A stretch of DNA of 64,000 nucleotides from an uncultured Ruminococcus sp. (GTDB taxonomy: Bacteria; Bacillota; Clostridia; Oscillospirales; Acutalibacteraceae). Positions 13,945-51,154 of this stretch are shown here, in pieces; positions within the stretch are counted from its first letter, which is position 1, and each line of letters starts with the position of its first letter. The stretch is from assembly GCA_902786345.1 (NCBI GenBank), contig CADACB010000010.1:34723-98722 (forward strand), in the 5' to 3' direction. Below the pieces are notes generated by a model. The model was not told the origin of the DNA, ran no database searches, and was given only the letters and a program-made list of their open reading frames with translations. Made by a program: the position numbers and the translations under genes.

Positions 13945-16089
13945 TTATTTCTTCATATAGTTAACATAATCCTGAAATGTTCTGTTGCTATCCTTTGATA
14001 ACCAATCACAGCAATCAATGAATTCTCTTATACTCGATCCGTCCAGTTTACTGTTGCCGAGAAATACTTTTTCCCAATCCAAAAAGATTCTGTAATTATA
14101 CGGCTTTCCATATCCGAAGCCTATCAACCCCCATGATAAATAACCACGGAGAGTCTCTATATCGGCGTTGGGAAATTCCTTTTTCCAACTATTGTAGAAT
14201 CTGTTGAATCGATCTACTATAAATTCATGATTGCCTCTATAGAAATCAGCTTTATCCGGATTTGAATAATCGAAACGGTTTCTCTCATCACTGTTCCGCC
14301 ACTCCCTGTAGACCTCATAGTCCTTGTAACCGAAAGCGGGAAAAGACGCTTTGAAGGCTCTGTAAATATTTTTGTATTCGTCAAAGGTCATTTCAGGATG
14401 GTCCCACTTAAAAGTGTTATATTCCTTAGTGGGTGCATATGCCTTCTGTTCATCGTCCGAAAGATTGTTATAGATGGTAAAAATCTTGTTGCTGTAGTTA
14501 TAGCAGTTCACATAATTAGTTGTCAGCTTTATGCCCCAACCGTAGATATCTTCTCTACGGTATGTGTACACCTTAAAGCTCTGCTCCTCACATTTGGGGT
14601 CATAGATGTTGATTCCCTTTGCGTAAACGGTGCAGTCATACAGCAGTGCTCCATCAACCTTGCCGGCAAACTCAGTTCCGGCATCCTTTTCCTTTGTATC
14701 AAGGTTAGTGCTTGTCAGAAGATAGGCGGTGCCGCTGTTCGCCACATCAAAGGTGTATGCTAATGCACCATACTTTTTCAGGTAATCATACAGAGAGGTA
14801 TTGGGATATTTTTCGCGGACATAGCTTGCGAGCTGCTTGATTTCGTCGGTGGAGATTGTGCTCTTTTTGACATAGTCACCGGCGACAGATTTCATGTCCT
14901 TATAAAGATTAACGTTCTGCGAACGTCCGATAACATCGGTGAGCGACTTACTTGTCTTGAAAATCATCGTGCCGTTGTCGTGCTTTTGAAAGCTCTTGAC
15001 CCCTGTTGCTGCTGCAACGAGCATTTTAGAAGCATCGCTCGCGTCAAGAATTTCTCTGTTTTTGTCAAAGCTGTTATAAGCCGTTCTGAGCGCACCGTCA
15101 CCAAGTGCCTTTACATCAGCGTCTTTGAAATAGTAAACAGCGTCCGCTGCCCTCTGGCACTCCGCCAACAGAGAAACCGCGTATACATACTGTTTTGTCA
15201 GGTCTTCGGCCGCACCATACGCCTCGTTATACGCTTCGCTTTCTACCATGCAGCCTGCCGCCTTGTCGTTGTAAAGCAAATCAAACATACAGTCTGACAC
15301 ATACTTGTTGCTGCCGTCCATATAGTCCCTGATGACGGTGCAGTAATTTTTGACGTCTCTGAAATCAGCCGAATTTTTGAGTGTTGCAAGCTTCATCATC
15401 TTCTGCTGGTTGTTGAGGTCGTCGTCGGTTTCAACCGCGTAAACGTCCTTTGCAAAGGACTCCAGCACAGCGCTGAGGTTACGGAAATTTGTCTTAAGCT
15501 CACTGAGTTCGGTTTTGTTACCAAGCCACTTGGTGTTGACGTCAATGTTGTTGTTAAGATGCTTCAGCTCCGTCTGAATGTCGTCGAGCTTTTGATCCAT
15601 TTTGTCGAGCTTGTCGTTCATCGCCGCCATGGGGTCGCTGTTATTGTCAACATTCACATGGAACAATGTTTTGAAAGGTGCTACCAAAAGTCCTGCTCCG
15701 GGAAAAGCATTACCGAGTGTGCCAAAAGCTTCGTCAGCCATCGCAATGCCCGCCTTCTTACCGTAATCCTCCGCGCTGACAGCGGCGTAGCTTACCGCAC
15801 CGATGTTGCCGCCGTCAAGAAGCTCAACATAAGACTGCTGATTTGTTTCCGCCGCACTTACCGGAACGGGGGCAATTGCCGACGCGCTGGATAAAACCAT
15901 AATGGACGCAAGCAGTGCCGGGATAAAGCCCTTGCCGCCTGTTACCTCGGCAAGCATTTCGTCGGGGATTTCAATATCATATTCGTCGATTACCTGCGCA
16001 ATCTCTTCCTCGGTTTTGCAGGTAAATACCTTTGTCTTTTGCTCCTCGGTCAGTGTGTTCAAAAATTCGTTAGCATTGAAGTTCGTCAT
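13945..16089 (-). CDS. 714-aa secreted-protein candidate with a Nif11/double-glycine-type leader (predicted PCAT cargo); function of the mature part unknown
   Basis: N-terminus MTNFNANEFLNTLTEEQKTKVFTCKTEEEIAQVIDEYDIEIPDEMLAEVTGG, followed by the hydrophobic stretch KGFIPALLASIMVLSSASAIAPVPVSAAE. AGGAGG RBS precedes the start. It is adjacent to a C39-ABC exporter. Confidence 0.85.
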   Translation of the reverse strand: MTNFNANEFLNTLTEEQKTKVFTCKTEEEIAQVIDEYDIEIPDEMLAEVTGGKGFIPALLASIMVLSSASAIAPVPVSAAETNQQSYVELLDGGNIGAVSYAAVSAEDYGKKAGIAMADEAFGTLGNAFPGAGLLVAPFKTLFHVNVDNNSDPMAAMNDKLDKMDQKLDDIQTELKHLNNNIDVNTKWLGNKTELSELKTNFRNLSAVLESFAKDVYAVETDDDLNNQQKMMKLATLKNSADFRDVKNYCTVIRDYMDGSNKYVSDCMFDLLYNDKAAGCMVESEAYNEAYGAAEDLTKQYVYAVSLLAECQRAADAVYYFKDADVKALGDGALRTAYNSFDKNREILDASDASKMLVAAATGVKSFQKHDNGTMIFKTSKSLTDVIGRSQNVNLYKDMKSVAGDYVKKSTISTDEIKQLASYVREKYPNTSLYDYLKKYGALAYTFDVANSGTAYLLTSTNLDTKEKDAGTEFAGKVDGALLYDCTVYAKGINIYDPKCEEQSFKVYTYRREDIYGWGIKLTTNYVNCYNYSNKIFTIYNNLSDDEQKAYAPTKEYNTFKWDHPEMTFDEYKNIYRAFKASFPAFGYKDYEVYREWRNSDERNRFDYSNPDKADFYRGNHEFIVDRFNRFYNSWKKEFPNADIETLRGYLSWGLIGFGYGKPYNYRIFLDWEKVFLGNSKLDGSSIREFIDCCDWLSKDSNRTFQDYVNYMKK

Positions 16090-16168
16090 TTCGGTTACCT
16101 CCTAAATGTATTTTAAAATTATTTTGCTTAGGTTATGTTCAGGGTTGTTTTCCGTTCCCTGTGACTAT

Positions 16169-16197
16169 ATAGTAACACCATTTTTTAATAGTTTCAA
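16169..16197 (-). promoter_or_regulatory. Candidate promoter of the cargo gene
   Basis: On the minus strand: TTGAAA (16197-16192), 17-nt spacer, TACTAT (16174-16169) with TG upstream. It lies about 80 nt before the cargo ATG. Confidence 0.45.
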
Positions 16198-16217
16198 TCT
16201 TCAATGTACCCACGATT

Positions 16218-16263
16218 TGTCTACTTAGAGACACATTACAGACAAAGTGTCTATTTGTAGACA
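16218..16263. promoter_or_regulatory. Cluster of five TGTCT/AGACA pentamers (three inverted-repeat pairs) upstream of the cargo promoter
   Basis: TGTCT at 16218 and 16248; AGACA at 16229, 16240 and 16259. This gives TGTCT-N6-AGACA, AGACA-N3-TGTCT and TGTCTA-N4-TAGACA. Confidence 0.4.
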
Positions 16264-16268
16264 TATTG

Positions 16269-18464
16269 TTAATGAATTGTCTGATTATCCGTTCTCTGAC
16301 GGCTGACAAGCTCGGAAAACAGCCCGTTTTTCGCTGTCAGTTCTTCGTAGCTTCCTTCCTCGGCAACGGCGCCGTTGTCGAGCACCAGTATTCTGTCGCA
16401 ATGGCGTATTGTCGAAAGTCTGTGCGCGATAATGATACGCGTGCAGCCCATTTTATCAAGAGAATCGCTCACCTGACGCTGCGTGATGTTGTCGAGAGCG
16501 CTGGTTGCTTCGTCAAAAATCAGAATTTTCGGTTGTGAAACAACCGCCCTCGCAATCAAGATACGCTGCTTTTGTCCGCCAGAAATTCCCCCCTGCCCTG
16601 CTGACACAAGGGTGTGCATCCCCATCGGCATAGCACGGATATCGTCGGCGATTCCCGCAATTTCAGCAGCTTTCCATGCATCGTCAAGTGTCGCCTGCGG
16701 AAATGCTATAGTAATATTTTCAAATATGCTACCCTGAAACAGCTCGCCGTTTTGCATAACCGTACCGATTTTGCCGCGCAGAGAGCTTAGGTCGAGCAAA
16801 TCCAAGCTGTGTCCGTCGTAAGCAACCTCGCCGCGTTCGGGAGTGCGCAGGCCGAGCAGCAGCTTTACCAAGGTGGATTTGCCGCAGCCTGTTTTGCCGA
16901 CAACCGCGATATATTCCTTAGGGCGTATTTTCAAAGACAGGTTTTTAAATATATATGGAGTGTTCTCGCCGTAGCGGAAGTAGATATTATTCAGCTCCAC
17001 TGCTCCGCTCAAATCTGAAACAATCCGTCGGTCGCCGTATGCTTCGGGTTCTGTCTGCATGAATATGTCAAGCATTTGCAGCATGGGCGCAATTTTTCCT
17101 ACGGACACAAACGAATCCGACAGCAACTTTATCGCACCGAGTACCGTGCCGAACGCCACCGCGAACGCGATATAGGACGATTGCCCAACGCCGTAATCCA
17201 TCGCAATGTTGTACAAAACGATACTTGAAACAAGGCTTACCGCAAGGGTGATTACACCACTGATACGTGCGAAAAGCGGCGGCGAAAAGCTGAGCCGTCT
17301 GCTTTCGGAATACTCGCCGAGCCACTTTGCGAAGAAGCGTTTTTCAGCTCCCGAGAGCTTTATCTTCTGAATTCCGTTTATCACGTTATATCTGGTTTTG
17401 GCTTCTTTGGCGGAAAGTTGCAGCTTTTTGTTGTTAATTTTTGTCTGCACAACCGCAGAGAGCACGCCGAAGCCGATGGTGATCAGCAGTATTGACAGCG
17501 TCGGCAGGCCGAGCGGCGGCGCAATCCAAAATATTTGAACGATATACAAAAGCGACGCCAGCGCGGTCAGCCCAGTTCCCGCAACGGCAGAAATCAATAG
17601 TTCGCAAAGCTCGTCAACAGTGCTCGAAAAGCCCGCAAGCTCGCCCGGACTTACTCTTTCAAAAAAGTCAGAAGGAAGCCCCAGTATCCGCATCATCAAA
17701 GCCGAATGAACCGTTAAGGAAGTTTTGCCGCGGATTCTCTTTATCAGCGAGTCAACTACCGTGCGGATTAACTGAACCGAGATCACGGTACACAGCATGA
17801 AAATACCAATAAAAAAGAGTAATATGGTATTGCCGCTTGCCACTATGTCGCCGGTAAGCACTTTTACCGTCTGCGGAATCAGCAGCCCGACGGCTGTCAT
17901 GAGCAGTACGCAAAAAGCGAGATATACCCAATCTTTTGCGCGCATACAATCCTTTATGTAGTATAGAAATTCCTTTGAAGTCAGCTTTTTATGCGGAAGC
18001 GGCTTGTAAAAACAATAGGCTTCCGTTTCAAACAACGCCGCCGTTTTGCGGTTTACCCTTACGGTACTTCCCAAATGGTTTTTAAAGCTGTAATGTGTGC
18101 CGAATTTATCGGGTAAGAGAACAACGGGCTCGCCGTTGTCTTTTCTGTGTGTAAGTAATACGCCGTAAGCATCCTTGTACCACTCACCATCCAAAAGGAC
18201 TGTACGCTTCATAACACCGTAGTACCGCAAGCTGTAGTTGAGCTGTTCGCCGCTGTCGGTGATAGAATCCGGAAACTTCACGGGCTTTAGGTGAAAATAT
18301 TTTAAAATCTCGTCAATGGCGCGTTCGGCGATAATGCTTTCGTCAAGCAATTCGTCTGCCGTTTGCTGTCCATAAACAATACCCGCTGCCTGAAGGAAGG
18401 TGTTTTCCAACAACTGTTGGTCTTGCTCCTTCCGCTCGTTTATTTGTTTTTCAAATAAATTCAT
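16269..18464 (-). CDS. ABC exporter (permease plus ATPase) with a non-peptidase N-terminal domain; NHLM-type second transporter
   Basis: 731 aa. The N-terminal domain of about 170 aa has no Cys/His C39 motifs. It has a 6-TM region, Walker A GKTGCGKST, signature ISGGQKQR and Walker B ILIFDEATSALD. AAGGAG RBS. Confidence 0.9.
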   Translation of the reverse strand: MNLFEKQINERKEQDQQLLENTFLQAAGIVYGQQTADELLDESIIAERAIDEILKYFHLKPVKFPDSITDSGEQLNYSLRYYGVMKRTVLLDGEWYKDAYGVLLTHRKDNGEPVVLLPDKFGTHYSFKNHLGSTVRVNRKTAALFETEAYCFYKPLPHKKLTSKEFLYYIKDCMRAKDWVYLAFCVLLMTAVGLLIPQTVKVLTGDIVASGNTILLFFIGIFMLCTVISVQLIRTVVDSLIKRIRGKTSLTVHSALMMRILGLPSDFFERVSPGELAGFSSTVDELCELLISAVAGTGLTALASLLYIVQIFWIAPPLGLPTLSILLITIGFGVLSAVVQTKINNKKLQLSAKEAKTRYNVINGIQKIKLSGAEKRFFAKWLGEYSESRRLSFSPPLFARISGVITLAVSLVSSIVLYNIAMDYGVGQSSYIAFAVAFGTVLGAIKLLSDSFVSVGKIAPMLQMLDIFMQTEPEAYGDRRIVSDLSGAVELNNIYFRYGENTPYIFKNLSLKIRPKEYIAVVGKTGCGKSTLVKLLLGLRTPERGEVAYDGHSLDLLDLSSLRGKIGTVMQNGELFQGSIFENITIAFPQATLDDAWKAAEIAGIADDIRAMPMGMHTLVSAGQGGISGGQKQRILIARAVVSQPKILIFDEATSALDNITQRQVSDSLDKMGCTRIIIAHRLSTIRHCDRILVLDNGAVAEEGSYEELTAKNGLFSELVSRQRTDNQTIH

Positions 18465-18475
18465 ACGCAGTCTCC

Positions 18476-40197: not shown

Positions 40198-40234
40198 TAA
40201 AAAAACCTGCTGTAAAATTTAACTTTTACAACAG
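40198..40234 (-). terminator. Intrinsic terminator after the pseudouridine synthase gene
   Basis: Minus strand: ctgttgtaaaa / ttttacagcag stem followed by gttttttta. Confidence 0.7.
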
Positions 40235-40243
40235 ATCAATTTA

Positions 40244-41212
40244 TCAGATAATATAATCTCCTTCAGAAAAATATGACGTAAACCATACCTCAGGAGCTGT
40301 AAAAACTTTTTCATTAAGATATTGAAGTATGCCGCTGTCACTTTTGAATGAGAATTTCAGTTTGTATGAATACAGTGCCTGATATTTATACCCCATTTTA
40401 CGGTTTATTTCGTTTCTTCCGTATTTTCCGTCTCCAAGCAGCGGATGTCCTATGTGTGCAAAATGTGCCCTTATCTGATGTGTTCTGCCCGTCAGCAAAT
40501 CTACTTCAACAAGACTGAAATTATTTTTTTCGGCAAGTACCTTGTATTTTGTCTTTATGGTTTTTGTATTATCGGTTGGTCTTTTTGATATATAAACCTT
40601 ATTCTTCTGTTCGTTCTTTTCAAGATAGTCAGTGAGCAGTGCTTCTTTTTTCTTGAATATTCCAACAGCAATACACAGATAAAGCTTTTCTATTTCTCTG
40701 TTTTTAACCTTTTGATTCAAAATACGCAGGGACTCAGAATTTTTTGCAGCAATAACGATACCTCCGGTATTTCTGTCTATACGATTGACAAGGGCAGGTG
40801 CAAAGGAATTTTCTTTTCTTGGATCATATTCGCCCTTATCATAAAGATAATGCTGCACACGGGCTATAAGTGAATCAAAATGGTATGTCTCATCAGGATG
40901 AACAAGCAATCCTGGTTTTTTATTCAGAAGCATTATGTTTTCATCCTCATAAACTATATCCAGCTTGATTGGCGCTTTCATAAAATCATATTCATCTGTT
41001 GTGCTTTGAAAGAACTCATCCTTGATATAAAGCGTAAGAATATCCCCAGCCTTAAGTCTGCTTGAGATCTCACACCTTTTTCCGTTCAGCTTGATATATT
41101 TTGTACGGATATATTTATACATCAGCGACTGAGGCATATTTTTAAAACGTTTGCTCAAAAACTTATCAAGTCTTTGTCCGCCGTCATTTGCAGTTATTTC
41201 AATCTGCCGCAT
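40244..41212 (-). CDS. RluA-family 23S rRNA pseudouridine synthase (RluD/RluC-like, with an S4 domain)
   Basis: S4-like N-terminus (GQRLDKFL) and catalytic VNRIDRNTGGIV. ATG at 41212 is the 11th codon of the track ORF. Confidence 0.88.
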   Translation of the reverse strand: MRQIEITANDGGQRLDKFLSKRFKNMPQSLMYKYIRTKYIKLNGKRCEISSRLKAGDILTLYIKDEFFQSTTDEYDFMKAPIKLDIVYEDENIMLLNKKPGLLVHPDETYHFDSLIARVQHYLYDKGEYDPRKENSFAPALVNRIDRNTGGIVIAAKNSESLRILNQKVKNREIEKLYLCIAVGIFKKKEALLTDYLEKNEQKNKVYISKRPTDNTKTIKTKYKVLAEKNNFSLVEVDLLTGRTHQIRAHFAHIGHPLLGDGKYGRNEINRKMGYKYQALYSYKLKFSFKSDSGILQYLNEKVFTAPEVWFTSYFSEGDYII

Positions 41213-41286
41213 AAATTCCACTTCCCTACTATGTTTCCACACTAAATATGATCACAGTTATATATTATACATATGACTGAAATTGT

Positions 41287-43860
41287 TTAAAGTCTTGAAG
41301 AAATAATATTTCTGATCTCATCCTCGGCAGCCCTGATCTCTTCATAGAACGCTCTTGATGATACACGCAGTGCACCGCTGCCAAGAATTATAAGCTGTTC
41401 AAGTCCATCTGAAGTAACTACCCTTACTCTATGATCTGAAGCGAGCTTATGAGTTGCCTTTTCAATGTACATATCAGCAGTTTCAGCTTCTTTTGTATAC
41501 ACTATACTGATATTATCCACTTTTTCAACCGAACCTTTGCCGCCCGTAACTTTATATGCATCAAATACCAGTATAACCTCGCATTTTTTATAGCCCTGAT
41601 AGTTGCACAAAGTATTGATCAGTGACGCTCTTGCAGCATCTATATTTGTTTCTGACAGCTTTTTAAGATGCTCCCACGAAAAAATTACGTTGTATCCGTC
41701 AACAAGAAGATATTCAGTATCATCAACAGGTTTTTTCACAGTTTTAATTTTTCTGTCGTTGTAAGAGGGTGCAATAAACTCTCGTTGCTGTTCCTCACTT
41801 TTTCTTTTTACAGGTCCGTATGTTTGTTCAAAAATCTGCATAAGCTCTCTGTCAAGTGCAAATATATCATTGCCTGAGCTATAGCCTGCAAGACGTTCAC
41901 GCTTATTGACGGTCTGAACCCCGGGCTTTGACCAGGCTTCAGGCAGATGCATATGAGATTTTACTTCATCCCATTTTACAATATATCCTGAACCGTGGGA
42001 ACAAAAAACAGAATCACATGGATTGTCTGTATCACGATCAGGAGAATAGTCTGACTTTTTAATAATCTCATCTGCATTGTGACAATCGTCATAGCCTATA
42101 AAGCTGCATACAATCCTGCCTCTTCCGTGAGTATATTGAGTGACCTCTTTCCCATAATTATTGATTGTAGAAACAGGAGCTTTGCCTTTTATTACCGACA
42201 TATCTCCAAGGGCTTCCGGCTGCTCAAAGCTGCCTGACATCTGCTGTATATCTGAAATTGCTCTGCCAATATTTTCATTCGGAACTTCCAGCATAAAGCT
42301 GTAATAAGGCTCAAGCAAAATACTGTTCGTTGAACGGATACCCTGCCTCACAGCCCTTAAGGCAGCCTGTCTGAAATCTCCGCCCTCGGTATGCTTTGGA
42401 TGTGCCTTTCCTGAAAGAAGTATTATTTCCATATCTGTTATCGGGGAACCTGTCAGCACACCAATATGTTTTTTTTCATATAGATTAGAAAGTATCAATC
42501 TCTGCCAGTTTTTATCAAGCGTATCCTCACGGCATTCAGAGCTGAAAACGATTCCGCTGTTTCGTTTTCCGGGCTTCAAAAGAAGATGAACCTCTGCATA
42601 ATGACGGAGCGGCTCAAAATGTCCTACACCTTCAACCGGCTCTGTTATTGTTTCCTTATATATGATATTGCCTGTACCAAATGAAACCTCAAAGCCGAAG
42701 CGCTCAGATATAATACTTTTCAGCACTTCAAGCTGTATCTCTCCCATAACCCTGAGCTGAATTTTACCATATCTCTCATTCATAGATACATTTAACAGCG
42801 GATCTTCGTTTTCAAGTATTTTAAGCTTTTCAAGTGCTGTATGTGTATTTACTCCTTCCGGCAAATCAAGTGAATATGTAAGAACAGGCGCAAGCACAGG
42901 CAGTGCAGAAGGCTTTTCTGTTCCAAGACCATCTCCGGGAGAAGCAAAGCTTATACCGGTAACTGCACATATTGTTCCCGGTAAAGCTTCTTCAACTGTA
43001 TTGAAACGTTCTCCTGAATATATTCTTATCTGGTTAACCTTTTCACTGTTTGTATTTTTATCACTTTCAAGTATATCTCTTACCCTGAGACAGCCTCCTG
43101 TCACCTTAAGATATGTAAGACGTCTTCCCTGTTTATCATCGGAAATTTTAAATACCTTTCCGGCAAAAACCTCGGGATATGACGGCATTTGAGTGTAATT
43201 ATAAAAAATATCAAGAAATGTATTCACACCATTGTTTTTTAATGCAGAGCCGAATATAACCGGAAAGATCCTTCTGTGTGATACAGCAGATGTGATACTC
43301 TCTTTATTTATCCGATCATTATTATAATATTCATCCAATAATTTGTCATCACATTCGGCAATGCTTTCGTTAAACAGAGGACTGTCGGCTTCTGTAAAAT
43401 CCACACATCGGTCACTTATCTTATTTTTCAGCAGTGCAATAAGCTCTGATTTATCTGCTCCCGGAAGATCCATTTTGTTTACAAAAATAAAACACGGCAG
43501 TCTGTATTTATTAAGCAGATCCCAAAGCGTATGCGTGTGGCTTTGGATGCCGTCAGTTCCGCTTATAACTAATATTGCATAATCAAGAACCTGAAGTGTT
43601 CTTTCAGCTTCGGCTGAAAAATCGACGTGTCCGGGTGTATCAAGTAACGTGTATTCAACATCCTTATATTTCAGAATCGCCTGCTTTGAAAAAATTGTGA
43701 TACCTCTTTCCCGTTCAAGAGAGTATGTGTCAAGAAAAGAATCACGATGGTCAACACGTCCCAGCTTATTGATATTTCCGGAGTTATAAAGCAGTGCTTC
43801 GGACAATGTTGTTTTTCCTGAATCCACATGTGCCAATATACCTGCAACAATTTTTTTCAT
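41287..43860 (-). CDS. Translational GTPase (EF-G/Tet(M)-like, five-domain) fused to a C-terminal YacP/Rae1-like NYN ribonuclease domain
   Basis: G motifs AHVDSGKTT, DTPGHVDF and NKMD, plus EF-G-like domains II-V. The C-terminal 150 aa (YLLVDGYNVIFSWEHL...ILVFDAYKV...IVYTKEAETADMYIEK...VVTSDGLEQLIILGSGALRVSSRAF) align well with B. subtilis Rae1/YacP as I remember it. Confidence 0.85.
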   Translation of the reverse strand: MKKIVAGILAHVDSGKTTLSEALLYNSGNINKLGRVDHRDSFLDTYSLERERGITIFSKQAILKYKDVEYTLLDTPGHVDFSAEAERTLQVLDYAILVISGTDGIQSHTHTLWDLLNKYRLPCFIFVNKMDLPGADKSELIALLKNKISDRCVDFTEADSPLFNESIAECDDKLLDEYYNNDRINKESITSAVSHRRIFPVIFGSALKNNGVNTFLDIFYNYTQMPSYPEVFAGKVFKISDDKQGRRLTYLKVTGGCLRVRDILESDKNTNSEKVNQIRIYSGERFNTVEEALPGTICAVTGISFASPGDGLGTEKPSALPVLAPVLTYSLDLPEGVNTHTALEKLKILENEDPLLNVSMNERYGKIQLRVMGEIQLEVLKSIISERFGFEVSFGTGNIIYKETITEPVEGVGHFEPLRHYAEVHLLLKPGKRNSGIVFSSECREDTLDKNWQRLILSNLYEKKHIGVLTGSPITDMEIILLSGKAHPKHTEGGDFRQAALRAVRQGIRSTNSILLEPYYSFMLEVPNENIGRAISDIQQMSGSFEQPEALGDMSVIKGKAPVSTINNYGKEVTQYTHGRGRIVCSFIGYDDCHNADEIIKKSDYSPDRDTDNPCDSVFCSHGSGYIVKWDEVKSHMHLPEAWSKPGVQTVNKRERLAGYSSGNDIFALDRELMQIFEQTYGPVKRKSEEQQREFIAPSYNDRKIKTVKKPVDDTEYLLVDGYNVIFSWEHLKKLSETNIDAARASLINTLCNYQGYKKCEVILVFDAYKVTGGKGSVEKVDNISIVYTKEAETADMYIEKATHKLASDHRVRVVTSDGLEQLIILGSGALRVSSRAFYEEIRAAEDEIRNIISSRL

Positions 43861-44026
43861 TCACTTTACCTCCGTCAGGTTAATCGGACAATAAAAAAGA
43901 CTGTATAATCCGATAAAGAAGGATAATTTCAGTAAAACATCCAAAACATTTTATGAACCGGATATTTTAAAAGCCGAAACCATCCATACCAATAGAATCA
44001 GACAGTCACTAATCCCGCAGCAATAT

Positions 44027-44057
44027 AATGCCGCTTATTTTACACTTAAGCGGCATT
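44027..44057 (-). terminator. Hairpin downstream of the amidohydrolase gene
   Basis: 11-bp stem aatgccgctta / taagcggcatt with a weak T tract. Confidence 0.4.
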
Positions 44058-44089
44058 AATATAATAATAAAATTCTATAGTACCTTTGT

Positions 44090-44908
44090 TCATATACTAA
44101 TTCCGAAAAGCTCAGCTGCATTCTTATACATAAGTCTGTCATATTCATCAGCTGTTATCATTTCTTTTAGCTCATTGAAATATTCCTGATAAAGCGAGCG
44201 GTCACCCATACGGTTATGAAGGTATGTGTCCTTACCATCAATCGGGCTGTCACTTCCGAAAACAATTTTCTCTATGCCTGCCGTCTTTATAAGCTTGAGT
44301 GTGCTCTTCAACGGCACCCAAGTTGTATCTCCATAAAGGTTAGGAAGTCTTGATATAAGCTCTATAGCCTCATTATTATCTGTTCCAAGTCCCATATGAA
44401 CCATAAAGAACTTTGTTTTAGGAAATTTTTTTGCCATATTATATACTCTTACACACGAAGCGGCATCCGAACCTCCTGTATGAACAACAACAGGTAATCC
44501 ATAATGCTCTGCAAGATCAATAAACGGCGTGACTTTATCGGAATCAAATGGCACATTGGAATGATATGGATGAAACTTTATTGCCTTTATATATTTTCTG
44601 TTGTCATTTATTGCCTTATAAAGATCATAATCGGCTTTTTCGCCAAAGGGCTTTACCCACACAGCAACACCTATACGATTTGGTTCAGACCTTGCAAACT
44701 CTATCACGTCATTAAGACATTCCAGCTGAGAATGCTGGTATTTACGTGGAATCGGACGAAGCTGATGATCAAATTCAGCTGCATTCAGGCTTGAAACAAT
44801 GCTGTAATCAATTCCGTATTTATCCATAGAATATACAACATCTTCCTTTGTAAGCCTGAAATTGAGCATATCACCAATGTGTACATGTGTGTCAATTATC
44901 ATATGCAT
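44090..44908 (-). CDS. Amidohydrolase-family (TIM-barrel metal-dependent) hydrolase
   Basis: IIDTHVHIGD N-terminal metal-binding motif, and later VVHTGG / VHMG histidines. Confidence 0.8.
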   Translation of the reverse strand: MHMIIDTHVHIGDMLNFRLTKEDVVYSMDKYGIDYSIVSSLNAAEFDHQLRPIPRKYQHSQLECLNDVIEFARSEPNRIGVAVWVKPFGEKADYDLYKAINDNRKYIKAIKFHPYHSNVPFDSDKVTPFIDLAEHYGLPVVVHTGGSDAASCVRVYNMAKKFPKTKFFMVHMGLGTDNNEAIELISRLPNLYGDTTWVPLKSTLKLIKTAGIEKIVFGSDSPIDGKDTYLHNRMGDRSLYQEYFNELKEMITADEYDRLMYKNAAELFGISI

Positions 44909-45475: not shown

Positions 45476-46270
45476 TCAAAAATATTTGTATACAAGATAT
45501 TCAAGATATTCTTTTGACTCCGTAAGCTCTGACAGCTTATCAAAGCTGAACCTATATACTTCTATTATTATATCACCGTCATATTTTAAACCTGCAAGAT
45601 ATTTGATAAATTCTTCTATATCAAATCTGCCCTTGCCCGGCAGAACACATTTGTTGTTTATATCATTATCGCTTATATGTATATGTCTGAGTGACTTACC
45701 CATAGTCTTTATTTCATCAAGCGGCGTGACTCCACTTCTGAACGCCTGCTTGGTGTCACATACAAAAAAAGCGCTTTCAGGTATCTGCTCTCTCATATCC
45801 ATTATAAAGTCAGGAATTCCGCTTCGGAATCTGACAACATTTTCCTGAAGGAGCTTTACACCGTAACAGGCAGCTTTTTTCTGAAGAAGTTCAAAGCGTC
45901 TGCAATATTCAGCATTTGAAAGAGATGAACTGTAGTCAGTGCTAAGACCGTGAAGCACCACTTTATCAGCACCAATATATTGAGCTGCACGAAAATACAT
46001 TTCGTATAAGCTTACACCGTCAAGAAATCTTCTTTCGTAATTTGAAAAAAGCAGAAAAGATTCATATGAGGATGTAAACGGATGGATAGATACAACTGAT
46101 GAGCCAAATCTTTCAAGATGTGTTTTCAGCTTATCAAGATAGTCTTTTTCAAGCTCGGAAAAAGTATTGAAAAAAATCTCAAACGTATCAAAACCTATTC
46201 CGGTAAGCGTGGATATACAATCCTCGGTAAGCATAGGATATAAGCATCCTGTTGATATTCCTATTTTCAT
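45476..46270 (-). CDS. Sugar phosphate isomerase/epimerase (xylose isomerase-like TIM barrel)
   Basis: 264 aa with layout and motifs typical of the AP endonuclease 2 / xylose isomerase-like fold. No specific function can be assigned. Confidence 0.75.
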   Translation of the reverse strand: MKIGISTGCLYPMLTEDCISTLTGIGFDTFEIFFNTFSELEKDYLDKLKTHLERFGSSVVSIHPFTSSYESFLLFSNYERRFLDGVSLYEMYFRAAQYIGADKVVLHGLSTDYSSSLSNAEYCRRFELLQKKAACYGVKLLQENVVRFRSGIPDFIMDMREQIPESAFFVCDTKQAFRSGVTPLDEIKTMGKSLRHIHISDNDINNKCVLPGKGRFDIEEFIKYLAGLKYDGDIIIEVYRFSFDKLSELTESKEYLEYLVYKYF

Positions 46271-46450
46271 ATTTACCCCGATAATACTACAGTTAAGTTT
46301 ATCTTATTTCCTGATTATTATAATATATCTTTTTTGCGGTAAAGTCAAATAAAATCAAGCATTTTATATAATTTTTTTATTTTCAGATAAAGATAAATAT
46401 GCACATTAATCCTTTTTAAAAAATAAATATAAAAATAATATAAAAAAAGC

Positions 46451-46479
46451 TTGACAAATGAATAAATTTAGTATATTAT
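46451..46479 (+). promoter_or_regulatory. Strong consensus-like promoter of an orphan short transcript
   Basis: TTGACA (46451-46456), 17-nt spacer, TATTAT (46474-46479), overlapping TATAAT. Confidence 0.5.
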
Positions 46480-46485
46480 AATAGC

Positions 46486-46642
46486 AGTTGAACAAACACT
46501 CACTCTATGGTGGAATAAATGCATCATTACAGTAGTTTGTTTAATGTTTTATTTTGATTATTCCTTTTCTTTCCTTTTTCCTTTTTTCTTTTTATTCCTT
46601 TAAGTAAGAACGCAGAGCTTGTCTCTGCGTTTTTGCTTTTTT
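46486..46642 (+). ncRNA. Candidate sRNA of about 155 nt with a 5' hairpin, a long CU-rich tract and an intrinsic terminator
   Basis: It is bounded by the promoter at 46451-46479 and the terminator at 46609-46642. No ORF with an RBS is present. A 10-bp stem ttgaacaaac / gtttgtttaa is followed by a pyrimidine tract at about 46557-46601. Confidence 0.3.
46609..46642 (+). terminator. Intrinsic terminator
   Basis: Stem aacgcagag / ctctgcgtt followed by tttgctttttt. Confidence 0.75.
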
Positions 46643-46703
46643 AGAATTATATTATTTTTAGCACCACACCACACATTTTTTTGTATATATTCATCACTGT
46701 ATA

Positions 46704-46733
46704 TTGACAAATACTCATTATTTTTTATATAAT
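46704..46733 (+). promoter_or_regulatory. Candidate promoter of the cohesin-like protein gene
   Basis: TTGACA (46704-46709), 18-nt spacer, TATAAT (46728-46733). Confidence 0.5.
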
Positions 46734-46766
46734 ATGGTATAAATCACATTATTAAGGATCAATAAA

Positions 46767-47615
46767 ATGAAATTTATAATAAAAATCCTATCAGTATTTT
46801 TTATCCTTTTTATCTCATTGGAATTAACGGGAACAGAAAATATTAAAGCGTCGGAAAATCTTACAGTAAAAATAAAAGCTGATGAAACTGTACGTCCGGA
46901 TAAGTCTTTTGATGTATTTGTGGAATTTTATTGTGATGAGGGTATTGGTGCACTTCAGTCATCTCTTACATATGACATCAGCCGTCTTTCACTTTCAAGT
47001 GTACAGCTTGAAAATAAAACTTCATATGATTTTTTCTCATACAGTGATACATCAGAAGGTGTAAAAATTCTTGTTTCTAATGCAAAAGAAAAGCCTGTTA
47101 TTCATACTGTAAAATTCAGATTTAAACCAAAAGATCATTATGATGACTGCATTTATAAATTCTCAATAAGCTTTTGCAGCTTCTGCACTGATAAAAAAGA
47201 ATTGATTCAATGCAGCTCACTCCCATCTTTTTCCGTAAGATCATTCTTGTCAAATGATACGAAAACAAACAGCAGCTCAGATGATAATTCAAAAACAAAA
47301 AACAGCCTGATATATGAAAAAGCTTCTGAACTCTATCAAAATAATACGTATTCACAAAACGATATTAAAAAAGCAGAAAATGGTAATTATTTAATTGCAG
47401 ATTATGACAATATTTCCGGAGTATCCGAAAATACATCATCTGACAGCAAAAATGATAATGCTTATTATATACAAGAAAAAATCAGTTCTTTTGTTACGGA
47501 TAAAACATTCTTACTTGGATTTATAGGTGTAGTGATCATTGTTTCATTAGCTATAATATATGCCTACAAGTCCGGACTAAAAAGAGCTAAACGTCAAGAC
47601 AATCAAAAAAAGTAA
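46767..47615 (+). CDS. Secreted, C-terminally membrane-anchored protein with a cohesin-like N-terminal domain (tentative)
   Basis: Signal peptide, then a beta-rich domain of about 140 aa (LTVKIKADETVRPDKSFDVFVEFYCDEGIGALQSSLTYD...), a Ser/Asn-rich linker and a C-terminal TM segment FLLGFIGVVIIVSLAIIYAY followed by a basic tail. Confidence 0.6.
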   Translation: MKFIIKILSVFFILFISLELTGTENIKASENLTVKIKADETVRPDKSFDVFVEFYCDEGIGALQSSLTYDISRLSLSSVQLENKTSYDFFSYSDTSEGVKILVSNAKEKPVIHTVKFRFKPKDHYDDCIYKFSISFCSFCTDKKELIQCSSLPSFSVRSFLSNDTKTNSSSDDNSKTKNSLIYEKASELYQNNTYSQNDIKKAENGNYLIADYDNISGVSENTSSDSKNDNAYYIQEKISSFVTDKTFLLGFIGVVIIVSLAIIYAYKSGLKRAKRQDNQKK

Positions 47616-47768
47616 AAGTAGTCCGACCTAAAAATAAAAAAAGTTAAAATTTATATATTCTCATAAGCATCTTGTTGTGCTATAATATATTCAGCATAAT
47701 CAGATGCTTTTTCTTATGCTTGAAATCAGACTTGCTGTAAAAAGATCTGTATATACGGAGGAAATAAT

Positions 47769-48125
47769 ATGCTTTTTATAAACTATCCAAAATGCACAAC
47801 CTGTAAAAAAGCTAAAAATTGGCTTGACGAAAACAATATATCCTACACAGACAGAAATATCAAAGAGCTTTCTCCCTCTTTTGAAGAACTGAAGCTATGG
47901 TATCAAAAGAGCGGACTGCCTTTAAAAAGTTTTTTTAACACAAGCGGCATTCTATATAAATCAATGCAGCTCAAGAATAAGCTGCCAGGAATGAGTGATG
48001 ATGAAAAAATTCAGCTTCTTGCAAGTGACGGTATGCTTGTAAAACGTCCTATAATCGTTAATGGAGATACCATACTTTTAGGATTCAAGCCGGATGAATG
48101 GAAGGAAATGCTGCTGACTGATTAA
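47769..48125 (+). CDS. ArsC/Spx-family (YffB-like) thioredoxin-fold protein
   Basis: 118 aa; the NYPKCTTCKKAKNWLDENNISY N-terminus is typical of the family. Confidence 0.85.
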   Translation: MLFINYPKCTTCKKAKNWLDENNISYTDRNIKELSPSFEELKLWYQKSGLPLKSFFNTSGILYKSMQLKNKLPGMSDDEKIQLLASDGMLVKRPIIVNGDTILLGFKPDEWKEMLLTD

Positions 48126-50121: not shown

Positions 50122-50814
50122 TTGAACGAAAATAAAAGAAATAATAAAAACAACAGGCTGATGTTTATACTAAAAATAATCGTCACAGCAGCAGCGGCAT
50201 TGTCAGTAGGTACAACAGGATTCGTTATATTCAACAGAAACAATTCCGATAAAAAGAATGAAAACAGTAAAGTTATTGTTAACTCATCAGCCGCGGAATC
50301 CGGAAGCATTAAAAATAAAAGCGTCGAACAAAGCTCTGAAAGCAAGTCCGGCAGCAATAACACTGACAATGACACTGTTATAACATACACGCTTGCAGAT
50401 GTTGACGCTCTGCAAAATGTTGATTATTTTGCAAACGGAACATTGGAACACATTTTTGACGGTACTATCAATAAAAAAGGTAAGGCTACCGGCTATCATT
50501 ACACAATGATCTCAGACAGCAAAGGCGAAGTTATTGAAGGTACAAAAAGTAAAACCGACAAAAACGGAGTTTTCACCGGCAAGGTAAAGGTAAGCGGAAT
50601 TTCAAAAAACGGTTTCAGTTCATTCTATCCGGAAAGCTGGTCACCCCAGCAGGTAGTCGATGCAATAAACAGTGCATACGAGGATGCTGTTTCAGATCCG
50701 TCAAATCCTTCCGGTTCATTATGGATAGGACATTATGGTGATATAGAGATAGATATGTACCTTAACAACAGCAAGAAAATAACAACAGCTTATCCGGTTT
50801 ATGAGGGGGATTGA
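50122..50814 (+). CDS. Membrane-anchored protein with a C-terminal bacterial EndoU-like nuclease domain
   Basis: TTG start with GGGAGTGA RBS. N-terminal TM segment (LMFILKIIVTAAAALSVG) and a Ser/Asn-rich linker, then LEHIFDGTINKKGKATGYHY...FSSFYPESWSPQQVVDAINSAYEDA...KKITTAYPVY. This resembles the EndoU_bacteria toxin domain (from memory). Confidence 0.7.
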   Translation: MNENKRNNKNNRLMFILKIIVTAAAALSVGTTGFVIFNRNNSDKKNENSKVIVNSSAAESGSIKNKSVEQSSESKSGSNNTDNDTVITYTLADVDALQNVDYFANGTLEHIFDGTINKKGKATGYHYTMISDSKGEVIEGTKSKTDKNGVFTGKVKVSGISKNGFSSFYPESWSPQQVVDAINSAYEDAVSDPSNPSGSLWIGHYGDIEIDMYLNNSKKITTAYPVYEGD

Positions 50815-50815
50815 T

Positions 50816-51154
50816 ATGCCTGACTATAAATTTAAAATATCTGAGGGAAAACATCCAATAGTCACAGTTGTATTCTCAGAAAAAAAATTCAACATTCTCA
50901 ATACGTTTTTGCTGTCTGAGGCAAGAAACTTCGGCAAGGAAATTCAAAACGGTCTTTTGAAGGTTCTATCCGGAAAAATTGACAGCTATTCATTTAGCGG
51001 TAATATTTTTTCTTTTGAAGCCGACTGCGAAAAAACCGTAATATCAAATGATATTTCCGAGGATGATCCACCTCTGAAAGTAAAAACAAGTGAGCTTCTT
51101 ATGCTTATAAACTCATATAAATCTGAACTTGACAATCTTAAGAACAAACAGTAA
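50816..51154 (+). CDS. Small cytoplasmic protein translationally coupled to the EndoU gene (possible immunity protein)
   Basis: ATG lies 2 nt after the EndoU stop, with a GAGGGGGA RBS inside the upstream gene. 112 aa with no signal peptide. I recognise no family. Confidence 0.55.
   Translation: MPDYKFKISEGKHPIVTVVFSEKKFNILNTFLLSEARNFGKEIQNGLLKVLSGKIDSYSFSGNIFSFEADCEKTVISNDISEDDPPLKVKTSELLMLINSYKSELDNLKNKQ

Follow-up and report, generated by a model that had tools for sequence, protein, structure and literature searches.

A translational GTPase fused to a Rae1/YacP-type NYN endoribonuclease in gut and rumen Clostridia: sequence features and a candidate role at stalled ribosomes

The stretch analysed here (the window) is 64,000 nucleotides of contig CADACB010000010.1 (positions 34,723 to 98,722) from an uncultured Ruminococcus sp. 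On its reverse strand, a single open reading frame (ORF) encodes a protein of 857 residues, in which a five-domain translational GTPase is joined to an endoribonuclease domain of the NYN_YacP family, the family of Bacillus subtilis Rae1/YacP. A prediction made by a model from the letters alone (the original prediction) had proposed such a fusion, and the presence of both modules in one ORF is confirmed by six Pfam domains, all of which score above their gathering cut-offs. The architecture itself is not new, since Tet-NYN_YacP fusions in Clostridia were noted by Atkinson 2015 (PMC4342817) and likewise by Matelska 2017 (PMC5499597). Full-text literature searches gave no functional work on the GTPase-NYN_YacP fusion, and the original statement to this effect held. 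The features of the gene, all on the minus strand, are as follows.

41287..43860, minus strand: whole coding sequence of the translational GTPase fused to the NYN_YacP endoribonuclease, 857 residues plus stop, one ORF
43189..43860, minus strand: GTP_EFTU G domain, residues 1-224 (Pfam 5-224, 1.9e-50), with a reduced G' insert
42925..43167, minus strand: domain II, EF-G_D2 (Pfam), residues 232-312
42676..42888, minus strand: domain III, EFG_III (Pfam), residues 325-395
42331..42669, minus strand: domain IV, EFG_IV (Pfam), residues 398-510
42364..42414, minus strand: domain IV tip loop SGKAHPKHTEGGDFRQA, residues 483-499, family-specific and nearly invariant
42076..42318, minus strand: domain V, EFG_C (Pfam), residues 515-595
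41941..42093, minus strand: Cys/His block, residues 590-640, from the alignment and the full-length model
41869..41940, minus strand: tether 1, residues 641-664, disordered in the model
41812..41868, minus strand: conserved acidic helix DIFALDRELMQIFEQTYGP, residues 665-683
41716..41811, minus strand: tether 2, residues 684-715, basic, disordered in the model
41290..41715, minus strand: NYN_YacP (Rae1-type) nuclease domain, residues 716-857 (Pfam 718-852, 2.2e-48)

Reality of the fusion and conservation of its two catalytic centres

Contigs of four runs from four different studies, with bovine gut, bioreactor sludge and gut as sources, span the fusion gene (41000-44100) with few substitutions and with neither indels nor joints. 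A joining of two genes by a sequencing error, which had been named as something to be checked, is excluded by these contigs. Searching a collection of 5.8 billion proteins gave the same picture: all 120 of the 120 best matches are about 860 residues long, align over 99-100% of the query and have the same six Pfam domains, so that GTP_EFTU and NYN_YacP recur together in every one of them. The frame is also unbroken in the 80 best species-level loci, examined from a scan of one genome per species with narrow patterns, wherever the flank suffices, except in two. Because independent assemblies are free of indels and several hundred species have the same architecture of about 860 residues, we regard the single-frame fusion as genuine and not as an assembly artefact. 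The two exceptions are gene copies in metagenome-assembled genomes (MAGs), one broken by a local frameshift (L063:6194-8813) and the other shorter (L061:3216-5153); both may be assembly errors or pseudogenes.

The motifs quoted in the original prediction (AHVDSGKTT, DTPGH, NKMD, LVDGYN, VFDAY, ETAD and TSD) are all found in the ORF. In the G domain, G1 AHVDSGKTT occupies residues 10-18, G3 DTPGH residues 74-78 with the catalytic His78, and G4 NKMD residues 128-131, accompanied by G2 RGIT and G5 GSAL. In the nuclease domain, LVDGYN lies at residues 719-724, VFDAY at 765-769, ETAD at 793-796 and TSD at 816-818. An alignment of 78 members, 40-52% identical to the query, was used to assess conservation. 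The columns of A10, V12, D13, G15, K16, T55, D74-H78, K129, D131 and G204 in the GTPase are invariant, and so are those of D721, Y723, N724, D767, T789, D796 and D818 in the NYN domain; the four acidic catalytic residues of the latter, whose conservation had been proposed as a check, are thus all intact. Since these core residues are invariant in members of such low identity, both catalytic centres are, judging from the alignment, kept by strong purifying selection. The full-length model (mean predicted local distance difference test score, pLDDT, 76.6; predicted template modelling score, pTM, 0.47) consists of folded domains joined by disordered tethers.

The GTPase body, the connecting region and the nuclease domain

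The GTPase body folds as EF-G, with a Foldseek probability of 1.0 to many free and ribosome-bound EF-G structures. By sequence it is almost equidistant from EF-G and Tet(M)/Tet(O), with E values in the PDB near 1e-72 to 1e-73 for both. Among the NCBIfam models, the generic tet_protect (NF012153) scores highest, with 419 bits against a cut-off of 775, and the model for TetM/W/O/S (NF033148) gives 293 bits against 1100. The EF-G models of NCBIfam/TIGRFAM also miss their cut-offs (342 bits against 583, and 299 against 659). Identity to authentic plasmid-borne Tet(M), Tet(O) and Tet(W) is 29-31%; Tet(S), TetB(P) and Otr(A) lie at a similar distance, within a band of 27-32%.

The loop at the tip of domain IV should be noted. 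In the Tet proteins, the 'YSPVS' of domain IV loop III displaces tetracycline. In the fusion, the Tet loop III GLYYSPVSTPADFR reads GKAHPKHTEGGDFR, the segment 'YYSPVS' being replaced with 'AHPKHTEGG', and this loop aligns without gaps to the tip loop of EF-G, DGSYHEVDSSEMAFKIA, its histidine included. The C-terminal tail of the Tet type (…PNSRIDKVRYMFNKIT) is absent, and the Cys/His block stands in its place. For domains IV-V, the match to EF-G (3e-17) is stronger than that to Tet(O)/Tet(M) (about 1e-12). The G' subdomain is much reduced: the HMMER alignment splits there, and EF-G residues ~161-218 have no counterpart. No leader peptide was found upstream of the gene, and no mobile-element context was found around it in the window, where the neighbours are chromosomal housekeeping genes. 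On these sequence comparisons the GTPase is a separate subfamily of translational GTPases, neither a Tet protein nor EF-G. The five-domain layout and the G motifs of the EF-G/Tet(M) type that had been predicted are present, whereas the Tet-specific tests all failed. Three marks defined within the present analysis, namely the domain IV loop AHxKHTEGGDFRQA, the 19-residue helix and the Cys/His block, characterize the family, and all are present in the protein of the window. Members are often named 'TetM/TetW/TetO/TetS family tetracycline resistance ribosomal protection protein' by NCBI (P0015, P0054, P0099 and P0315, and in L002 and L003).

Between the GTPase and the nuclease, the original prediction had placed a linker of about 60 residues. 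Disordered tethers are indeed present, but the region is not a plain linker, because the Cys/His block and a conserved helix lie in between. The block follows the pattern 'GYxxCHN...DxxNPxDSVFCxHGxGxxVxWxxV..xMH'. Among the 78 members, C593 is kept in 67, C620 in 70, H622 in 55 and H638 in 70, while S617 and F619 are kept in all 78; the block is common to the fused members and to unfused Lactobacillus relatives. It was considered as an autonomous domain and rejected as such, since its pLDDT is 82-88 in the full-length model and falls to 62 when it is modelled alone. Because the block is confident only within the full-length model, it is probably an extension that packs on domain V. It may be a metal site.

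The modules are separated by a tether of about 75-76 residues, composed of a variable linker, an acidic helix and a basic linker. Tether 1 varies from 12 to 46 residues across the family and is roughly neutral. The acidic helix, with the consensus 'FALDxELMQIFEQTYGP', is always 19 residues long; short peptides of the helix gave no match in Pfam. Tether 2 is net positive in 74 of the 78 members, with a median of +5. The helix preceding the NYN domain, FALDRELMQIFEQTYG, resembles the C-terminal tail of Rae1, IALSEEVLKTFEKWRRG, and was considered as a relocated copy of this tail; despite the resemblance, the idea was rejected. A hidden Markov model built on the Rae1 tail only put 14 of its 41 best matches there, but shuffled decoys scored at least as well, and the hhalign score between helix and tail (11.2) was reached by 7 of 200 permutations. 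The helix and a tail of the Rae1 type also co-occur in many members, for example P0271, which counts against a relocation.

The NYN domain gives 164.8 bits with NYN_YacP (PF05991; gathering cut-off 24.6) and matches the crystal structures of B. subtilis YacP/Rae1, 5MQ8/5MQ9 (E 3.4e-23). D721, D767, D796 and D818 are aligned to D7, D53, D81 and D104 of Rae1, respectively, and identity to annotated rae1/yacP genes is 37-46%. Only positions 1-137 of the 166 in the profile are matched, as the protein ends past the last core helix and the tail (138-166) is absent. A tail of the Rae1 type (…LDEETAKQMEEIRLGK) follows the NYN core in about 40% of 380 sampled members, including P0271 and P0162, and is lost in the protein of the window and its Oscillospirales relatives.

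Stand-alone Rae1 is a ribosome-dependent mRNA endonuclease that acts at stalled or collided ribosomes and feeds transfer-messenger RNA (tmRNA) (PMC12407103, PMC13622287). Its targets known so far require a specific stalling peptide together with a sequence context (PMC12407103). Tetreault 2026 described Rae1-dependent tmRNA tagging at collided ribosomes and a global rise in tagging, and stated that there is no structure of ribosome-bound Rae1, the binding being transient (PMC13622287).

Distribution, unfused relatives and gene neighbourhood

The fusion family is common in Clostridia of the gut and rumen. A matching gene is present in at least 564 species genomes. At 50% identity the members form at least 150 clusters, whose representatives include relatives of 41-60% identity and are nearly all 830-1150 residues long, and one cluster at 90% contains 2838 member sequences. 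The carriers include Acutalibacteraceae, MAGs labelled Ruminococcus, Eubacterium and Faecalibacterium, Eubacterium coprostanoligenes ATCC 51222, Anaerostipes and other Lachnospiraceae, Agathobacter rectalis, Monoglobus pectinilyticus, Mogibacterium and Erysipelotrichia. The source of the window belongs to the Acutalibacteraceae/'Ruminococcus' group and lives in the rumen or the bovine gut. In the plasmid collection, matches of the fused type are limited to chromosome-like records (Monoglobus and Agathobacter). Among 2.9 million viral contigs, only about six family-level matches were found (L098-L103), against dozens of tet genes. Several of these matches lie at contig ends, and several end at residue ~639, as the unfused proteins do; probably they come from host DNA flanking prophage calls. 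Three variants of unusual layout were also seen, each of which may be real or an artefact of assembly or gene calling: P0155 (1156 residues) has an insertion of ~300 residues inside the G domain, P0271 (1040 residues) has two stretches each of domains IV and V, and P0146 (655 residues) lacks domains II-III.

A relative without the nuclease, annotated as 'translation factor GTPase family protein', is found in Ligilactobacillus salivarius (WP_164920261, 644 residues), encoded on mobilizable megaplasmids. It is 49-50% identical over residues 1-644 and shares both the domain IV loop and the Cys/His block, directly after which it ends, and it has no helix, tether or NYN domain. Another protein, P0268 (651 residues), resembles it. 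Since the unfused relatives end after the block, the GTPase with its Cys/His block is taken to be the ancestral unit, to which the helix, the tether and the NYN domain were added. Because the GTPase and Rae1 are fused in Clostridia and separate elsewhere, they are predicted to be functionally linked (Rosetta-stone logic). On L. salivarius pMP118 (L002:5402-7920), the unfused gene is divergent from a Cys-less S14 paralogue and a 35-residue 'metal homeostasis' peptide. S14 without the cysteines is the zinc-independent type, and the intergenic region holds a palindrome, AAATAGTAATCATTACTTT, which we take to be Zur-box-like from the Zur consensus. This context may link the GTPase with the Cys/His block to zinc, though it could be a coincidence.

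Around the fusion gene of the window, the order of neighbours is AP_endonuc_2, NrdR, amidohydrolase, the fusion gene, S4 + PseudoU_synth_2, DegV and IspF. The features that concern its transcription and translation are as follows; the start codon is ATG.

43964..43992, minus strand: promoter-like site TTGGTA-17-TAAAAT, upstream of the fusion gene
43869-43873, minus strand: ribosome-binding site GGAGG, ahead of the ATG start of the fusion gene
40244..41242, minus strand: S4 + PseudoU_synth_2 (RluD/RluC-like) gene, 44 bp after the fusion stop
40204..40237, minus strand: first terminator-like hairpin with T-run downstream on this strand

No terminator was found between the fusion gene and the pseudouridine synthase gene. 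Because the gap is 44 bp and the first terminator stands only after the second gene, co-transcription of the two genes is plausible in the genome of the window. Sparse metatranscriptome contigs map on both genes. The shared operon that had been suggested is therefore plausible locally, but the linkage is not conserved: of the 80 related loci, a single one has an RluD-like neighbour, encoded on the opposite strand. The amidohydrolase neighbour recurs in three, no neighbour family occurs in more than 11, and no conserved operon partner was found in these 80 loci.

The surroundings of stand-alone yacP are different. In six taxa (Bacillus, C. difficile, Listeria, Staphylococcus, Latilactobacillus and Collinsella) the order is rlmB-yacP, and in five of the six a sigma-factor gene follows, which is sigH in Bacillus, Listeria and C. 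difficile. The fusion gene in the window does not have the rlmB-yacP-sigH context. In Monoglobus pectinilyticus, a carrier of the fusion (L095 and L096), rlmB lies apart from sigH and no yacP adjoins either gene; sigH follows pta-ackA, a metallophosphoesterase gene follows rlmB, and the fusion is the only match of the NYN_YacP type in the Monoglobus records. In Vescimonas fastidiosa, rlmB is likewise without a yacP after it. A second yacP was not found in the 64-kb window, and a rlmB-sigH region was found neither there nor in the related loci retrieved. Because the canonical rlmB-yacP-sigH slot is empty in Monoglobus, the fusion probably replaces stand-alone Rae1 in the carrier lineages.

An Rfam scan of the whole 64 kb gave nothing at the gathering score, and thus no match to a tRNA, rRNA, riboswitch or leader. 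Elsewhere in the window, a 217-residue protein with an EndoU_bacteria domain (~50161-50814, plus strand) is followed by a 112-residue ORF without a family match (~50816-51154, plus strand), and the two could be a nuclease toxin-immunity pair. The GC content is 0.46-0.48 at 14001-20000 and 0.29 at 46001-48000, and about 0.35-0.40 elsewhere; the low-GC stretch holds a Ser/Asn-rich, membrane-anchored ORF of 282 residues (46767-47615) without a Pfam match.

Proposed function and comparison with known systems

We propose, with a probability of about 0.5, that the fusion is a GTP-gated, ribosome-docked mRNA endonuclease for rescue or decay at stalled or collided ribosomes, serving as a chromosomal housekeeping quality-control factor. 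The sequence data show the architecture, the intact catalytic residues of both modules, the wide spread of the family, its non-Tet character and the lack of a mobile or defence context; that the fusion binds ribosomes, which RNA it cuts and where, and that GTP gates the cut, we infer. The original prediction had a GTPase directed to the A site delivering an A-site RNase. The premise of an A-site RNase is outdated, as Rae1 is now tied to collided ribosomes and tmRNA (Tetreault 2026, PMC13622287). Because Rae1 is not an A-site nuclease and a tether of ~75 residues separates the modules, delivery of an A-site nuclease by an A-site GTPase does not follow.

In the proposed mechanism, the five-domain body in its GTP form would dock in the factor-binding site of the ribosome, with domain IV reaching toward the decoding centre. 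The ribosome concerned would be either a stalled one with a vacant A site or a collided one locked in the rotated state. Docking would raise the local concentration of the tethered NYN domain. The nearest mRNA outside the decoding centre is that in the entry channel, and the reach of the tether is, as a rough estimate, typically several tens of angstroms, with a maximum of over 200 angstroms. The NYN domain may thus cut the mRNA beside the docked ribosome, most plausibly on the mRNA-entry side. Within a disome, this side of the collided ribosome faces the exit side of the stalled ribosome, where stand-alone Rae1 cuts, so that a body docked on the collided, rotated and non-translocating ribosome would bring the nuclease to the position known for Rae1. 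If the body docked on a stalled ribosome whose A site is vacant, the cut would be expected downstream of that A site. Either way, cleavage would leave a non-stop end, leading to tmRNA rescue and mRNA decay, and GTP hydrolysis on the sarcin-ricin loop would release the factor and so set the time of its release.

Several points weigh against this proposal. The case for binding to the ribosome, for GTPase activity and for the RNA substrate is one of homology. The geometrical argument uses general knowledge of ribosome dimensions, and the placement of the domains relative to each other is not confidently predicted, as the pTM of 0.47 indicates. Stand-alone yacP sits in an rRNA-modification operon. 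The fused NYN domains are not separated from stand-alone Firmicute YacPs in a crude neighbour-joining tree. The replacement of stand-alone Rae1 is based on one genome and one rlmB locus (Vescimonas), in records of uncertain completeness, and the search for a second yacP in the genome of the window itself covered 64 kb. Finally, NYN_YacP was first predicted to process rRNA and tRNA (cited in PMC4342817; PMC5499597).

The last point leads to a different function, in which the fusion is a factor for rRNA or tRNA processing, ribosome biogenesis or ribosome turnover. With the GTPase docked on subunits or on 70S ribosomes, the nuclease would cut rRNA, either to trim precursors or to inactivate and degrade ribosomes that are defective or in surplus. 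Besides the early prediction of maturation (PMC4342817; PMC5499597), this function is favoured by stand-alone yacP, which always adjoins rlmB and mrnC, and by the rRNA-type pseudouridine synthase gene that lies downstream in the window with no terminator between. However, all experimental work on Rae1 shows translation-dependent mRNA cleavage, the pseudouridine synthase neighbour is confined to a single locus of the 80 with no other family in more than 11, and the fusion lies outside the rlmB operon. We consider a role in rRNA or tRNA processing unlikely, though with some support. A role confined to a few dedicated short ORFs or leader transcripts, which would be cleaved at programmed stalls as spyA and bmrX are by Rae1, is improbable in our judgement. 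The global Rae1-dependent rise in tmRNA tagging (PMC13622287) argues against such a gene-specific regulator, even though the known Rae1 targets require a stalling peptide and a sequence context (PMC12407103); the sequence data give nothing to separate it from the quality-control role.

Atkinson 2015 suggested ribosomal protection against tetracycline with an RNase activity added to it, which agrees with the frequent product name at NCBI. Though tet_protect is the best NCBIfam model, the body with its short G' can be aligned to Tet(M) without a break and many records are named 'TetM/TetW/TetO/TetS family', the scores lie under both Tet cut-offs, the identity to Tet(M/O/W) is low, loop III is replaced, the Tet tail is absent and domains IV-V are closer in score to EF-G than to Tet. 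There is neither a leader peptide nor a mobile context, and the family is rare in the viral contigs in which tet genes are numerous, all of which makes tetracycline protection very improbable. The last alternative to be weighed is a regulated translation shut-off or a toxin of the defence type, in which a GTP- or stress-gated nuclease would cut translated mRNA globally, for instance upon phage infection or starvation. Nucleases of the PIN/NYN type are frequent among toxins, the Rae1 preprint speculates on an action against phage mRNAs (PMC13622287), and the copy in Agathobacter adjoins a BrnT/BrnA toxin-antitoxin pair. PADLOC, however, gave no match, no antitoxin-like or defence neighbour is conserved in the 80 loci, the viral contigs give no support, and the single gene copy is inherited broadly and lies among housekeeping genes. 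We therefore regard a toxin or defence function as quite improbable.

The proposed quality-control factor may be extended in a more speculative manner, to which we attach only a low probability. The GTPase-tethered form would be the only Rae1 in most gut and rumen Clostridia, would act in another way than stand-alone Rae1, and would serve as a collision-independent 'no-go decay' factor. Its body would sense whether an individual ribosome has a vacant A site or is in an untranslocatable rotated state, and would license cleavage in a GTP-dependent manner, so that the sensor, the timer (GTP hydrolysis) and the nuclease would be in one polypeptide; the Cys/His block would be a metal-dependent ribosome contact or a regulatory site.

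Rae1 is now being redefined as a Gram-positive collision-rescue nuclease, and the fusion offers a handle on the contact between this nuclease and the ribosome. With non-hydrolysable GTP, or with His78 mutated, the fusion could be held on the ribosome, which might give a view of an NYN nuclease engaging the ribosome. Its abundance in gut and rumen Clostridia suggests that ribosome rescue is organised differently there from Bacillus. The fused Clostridial and unfused Lactobacillus forms predict a functional link of an otherwise uncharacterised GTPase to Rae1. The TetM/TetW/TetO/TetS product names, which we argue are wrong, carry a risk that tet genes are over-counted in resistome surveys of gut and rumen.

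Among the known systems, Tet(M), Tet(O) and Tet(W) share with the fusion the five-domain translational GTPase, the short G' insert and an alignment over residues 1-590. Unlike them, the fusion lacks YSPVS and the C-terminal tail, falls below the NCBIfam Tet cut-offs at 29-31% identity, is chromosomal and not mobile, and has the Cys/His block and the NYN domain. EF-G and its EF-G2 paralogues have the same five-domain fold, a tip loop of equal length with the aligned histidine, and the catalytic histidine of DTPGH, whereas in the fusion G' is much reduced, loop I of domain IV is 4 residues shorter and the EF-G cut-offs are missed.

SmrB of E. coli is similar in being an endonuclease recruited to stalled or collided ribosomes, and Cue2 is likewise a collision-dependent mRNA endonuclease (PMC13622287); their fold is SMR, unrelated to NYN. 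Rae1/YacP of B. subtilis has the NYN_YacP fold with the four acidic residues aligned and a core identity of 39%, and by analogy a ribosome-dependent action would be expected for the fusion. It is, however, a single domain of 170 residues with a C-terminal tail of ~30 residues, encoded in the rlmB-yacP-sigH cluster, whereas the NYN domain of the fusion is the tail-less C-terminal end of an 857-residue GTPase, with a basic tether at its N-terminal side and no fixed gene context. In eukaryotes, NONU-1 is a collision-dependent mRNA endonuclease as Cue2 is, and Hbs1-Dom34 and GTPBP1/2 are translational GTPases at stalled ribosomes that are coupled to mRNA decay. To our knowledge, in the systems of SmrB, Cue2/NONU-1, Hbs1-Dom34 and GTPBP1/2 the GTPase and the nuclease are never one polypeptide, as they are in the fusion.

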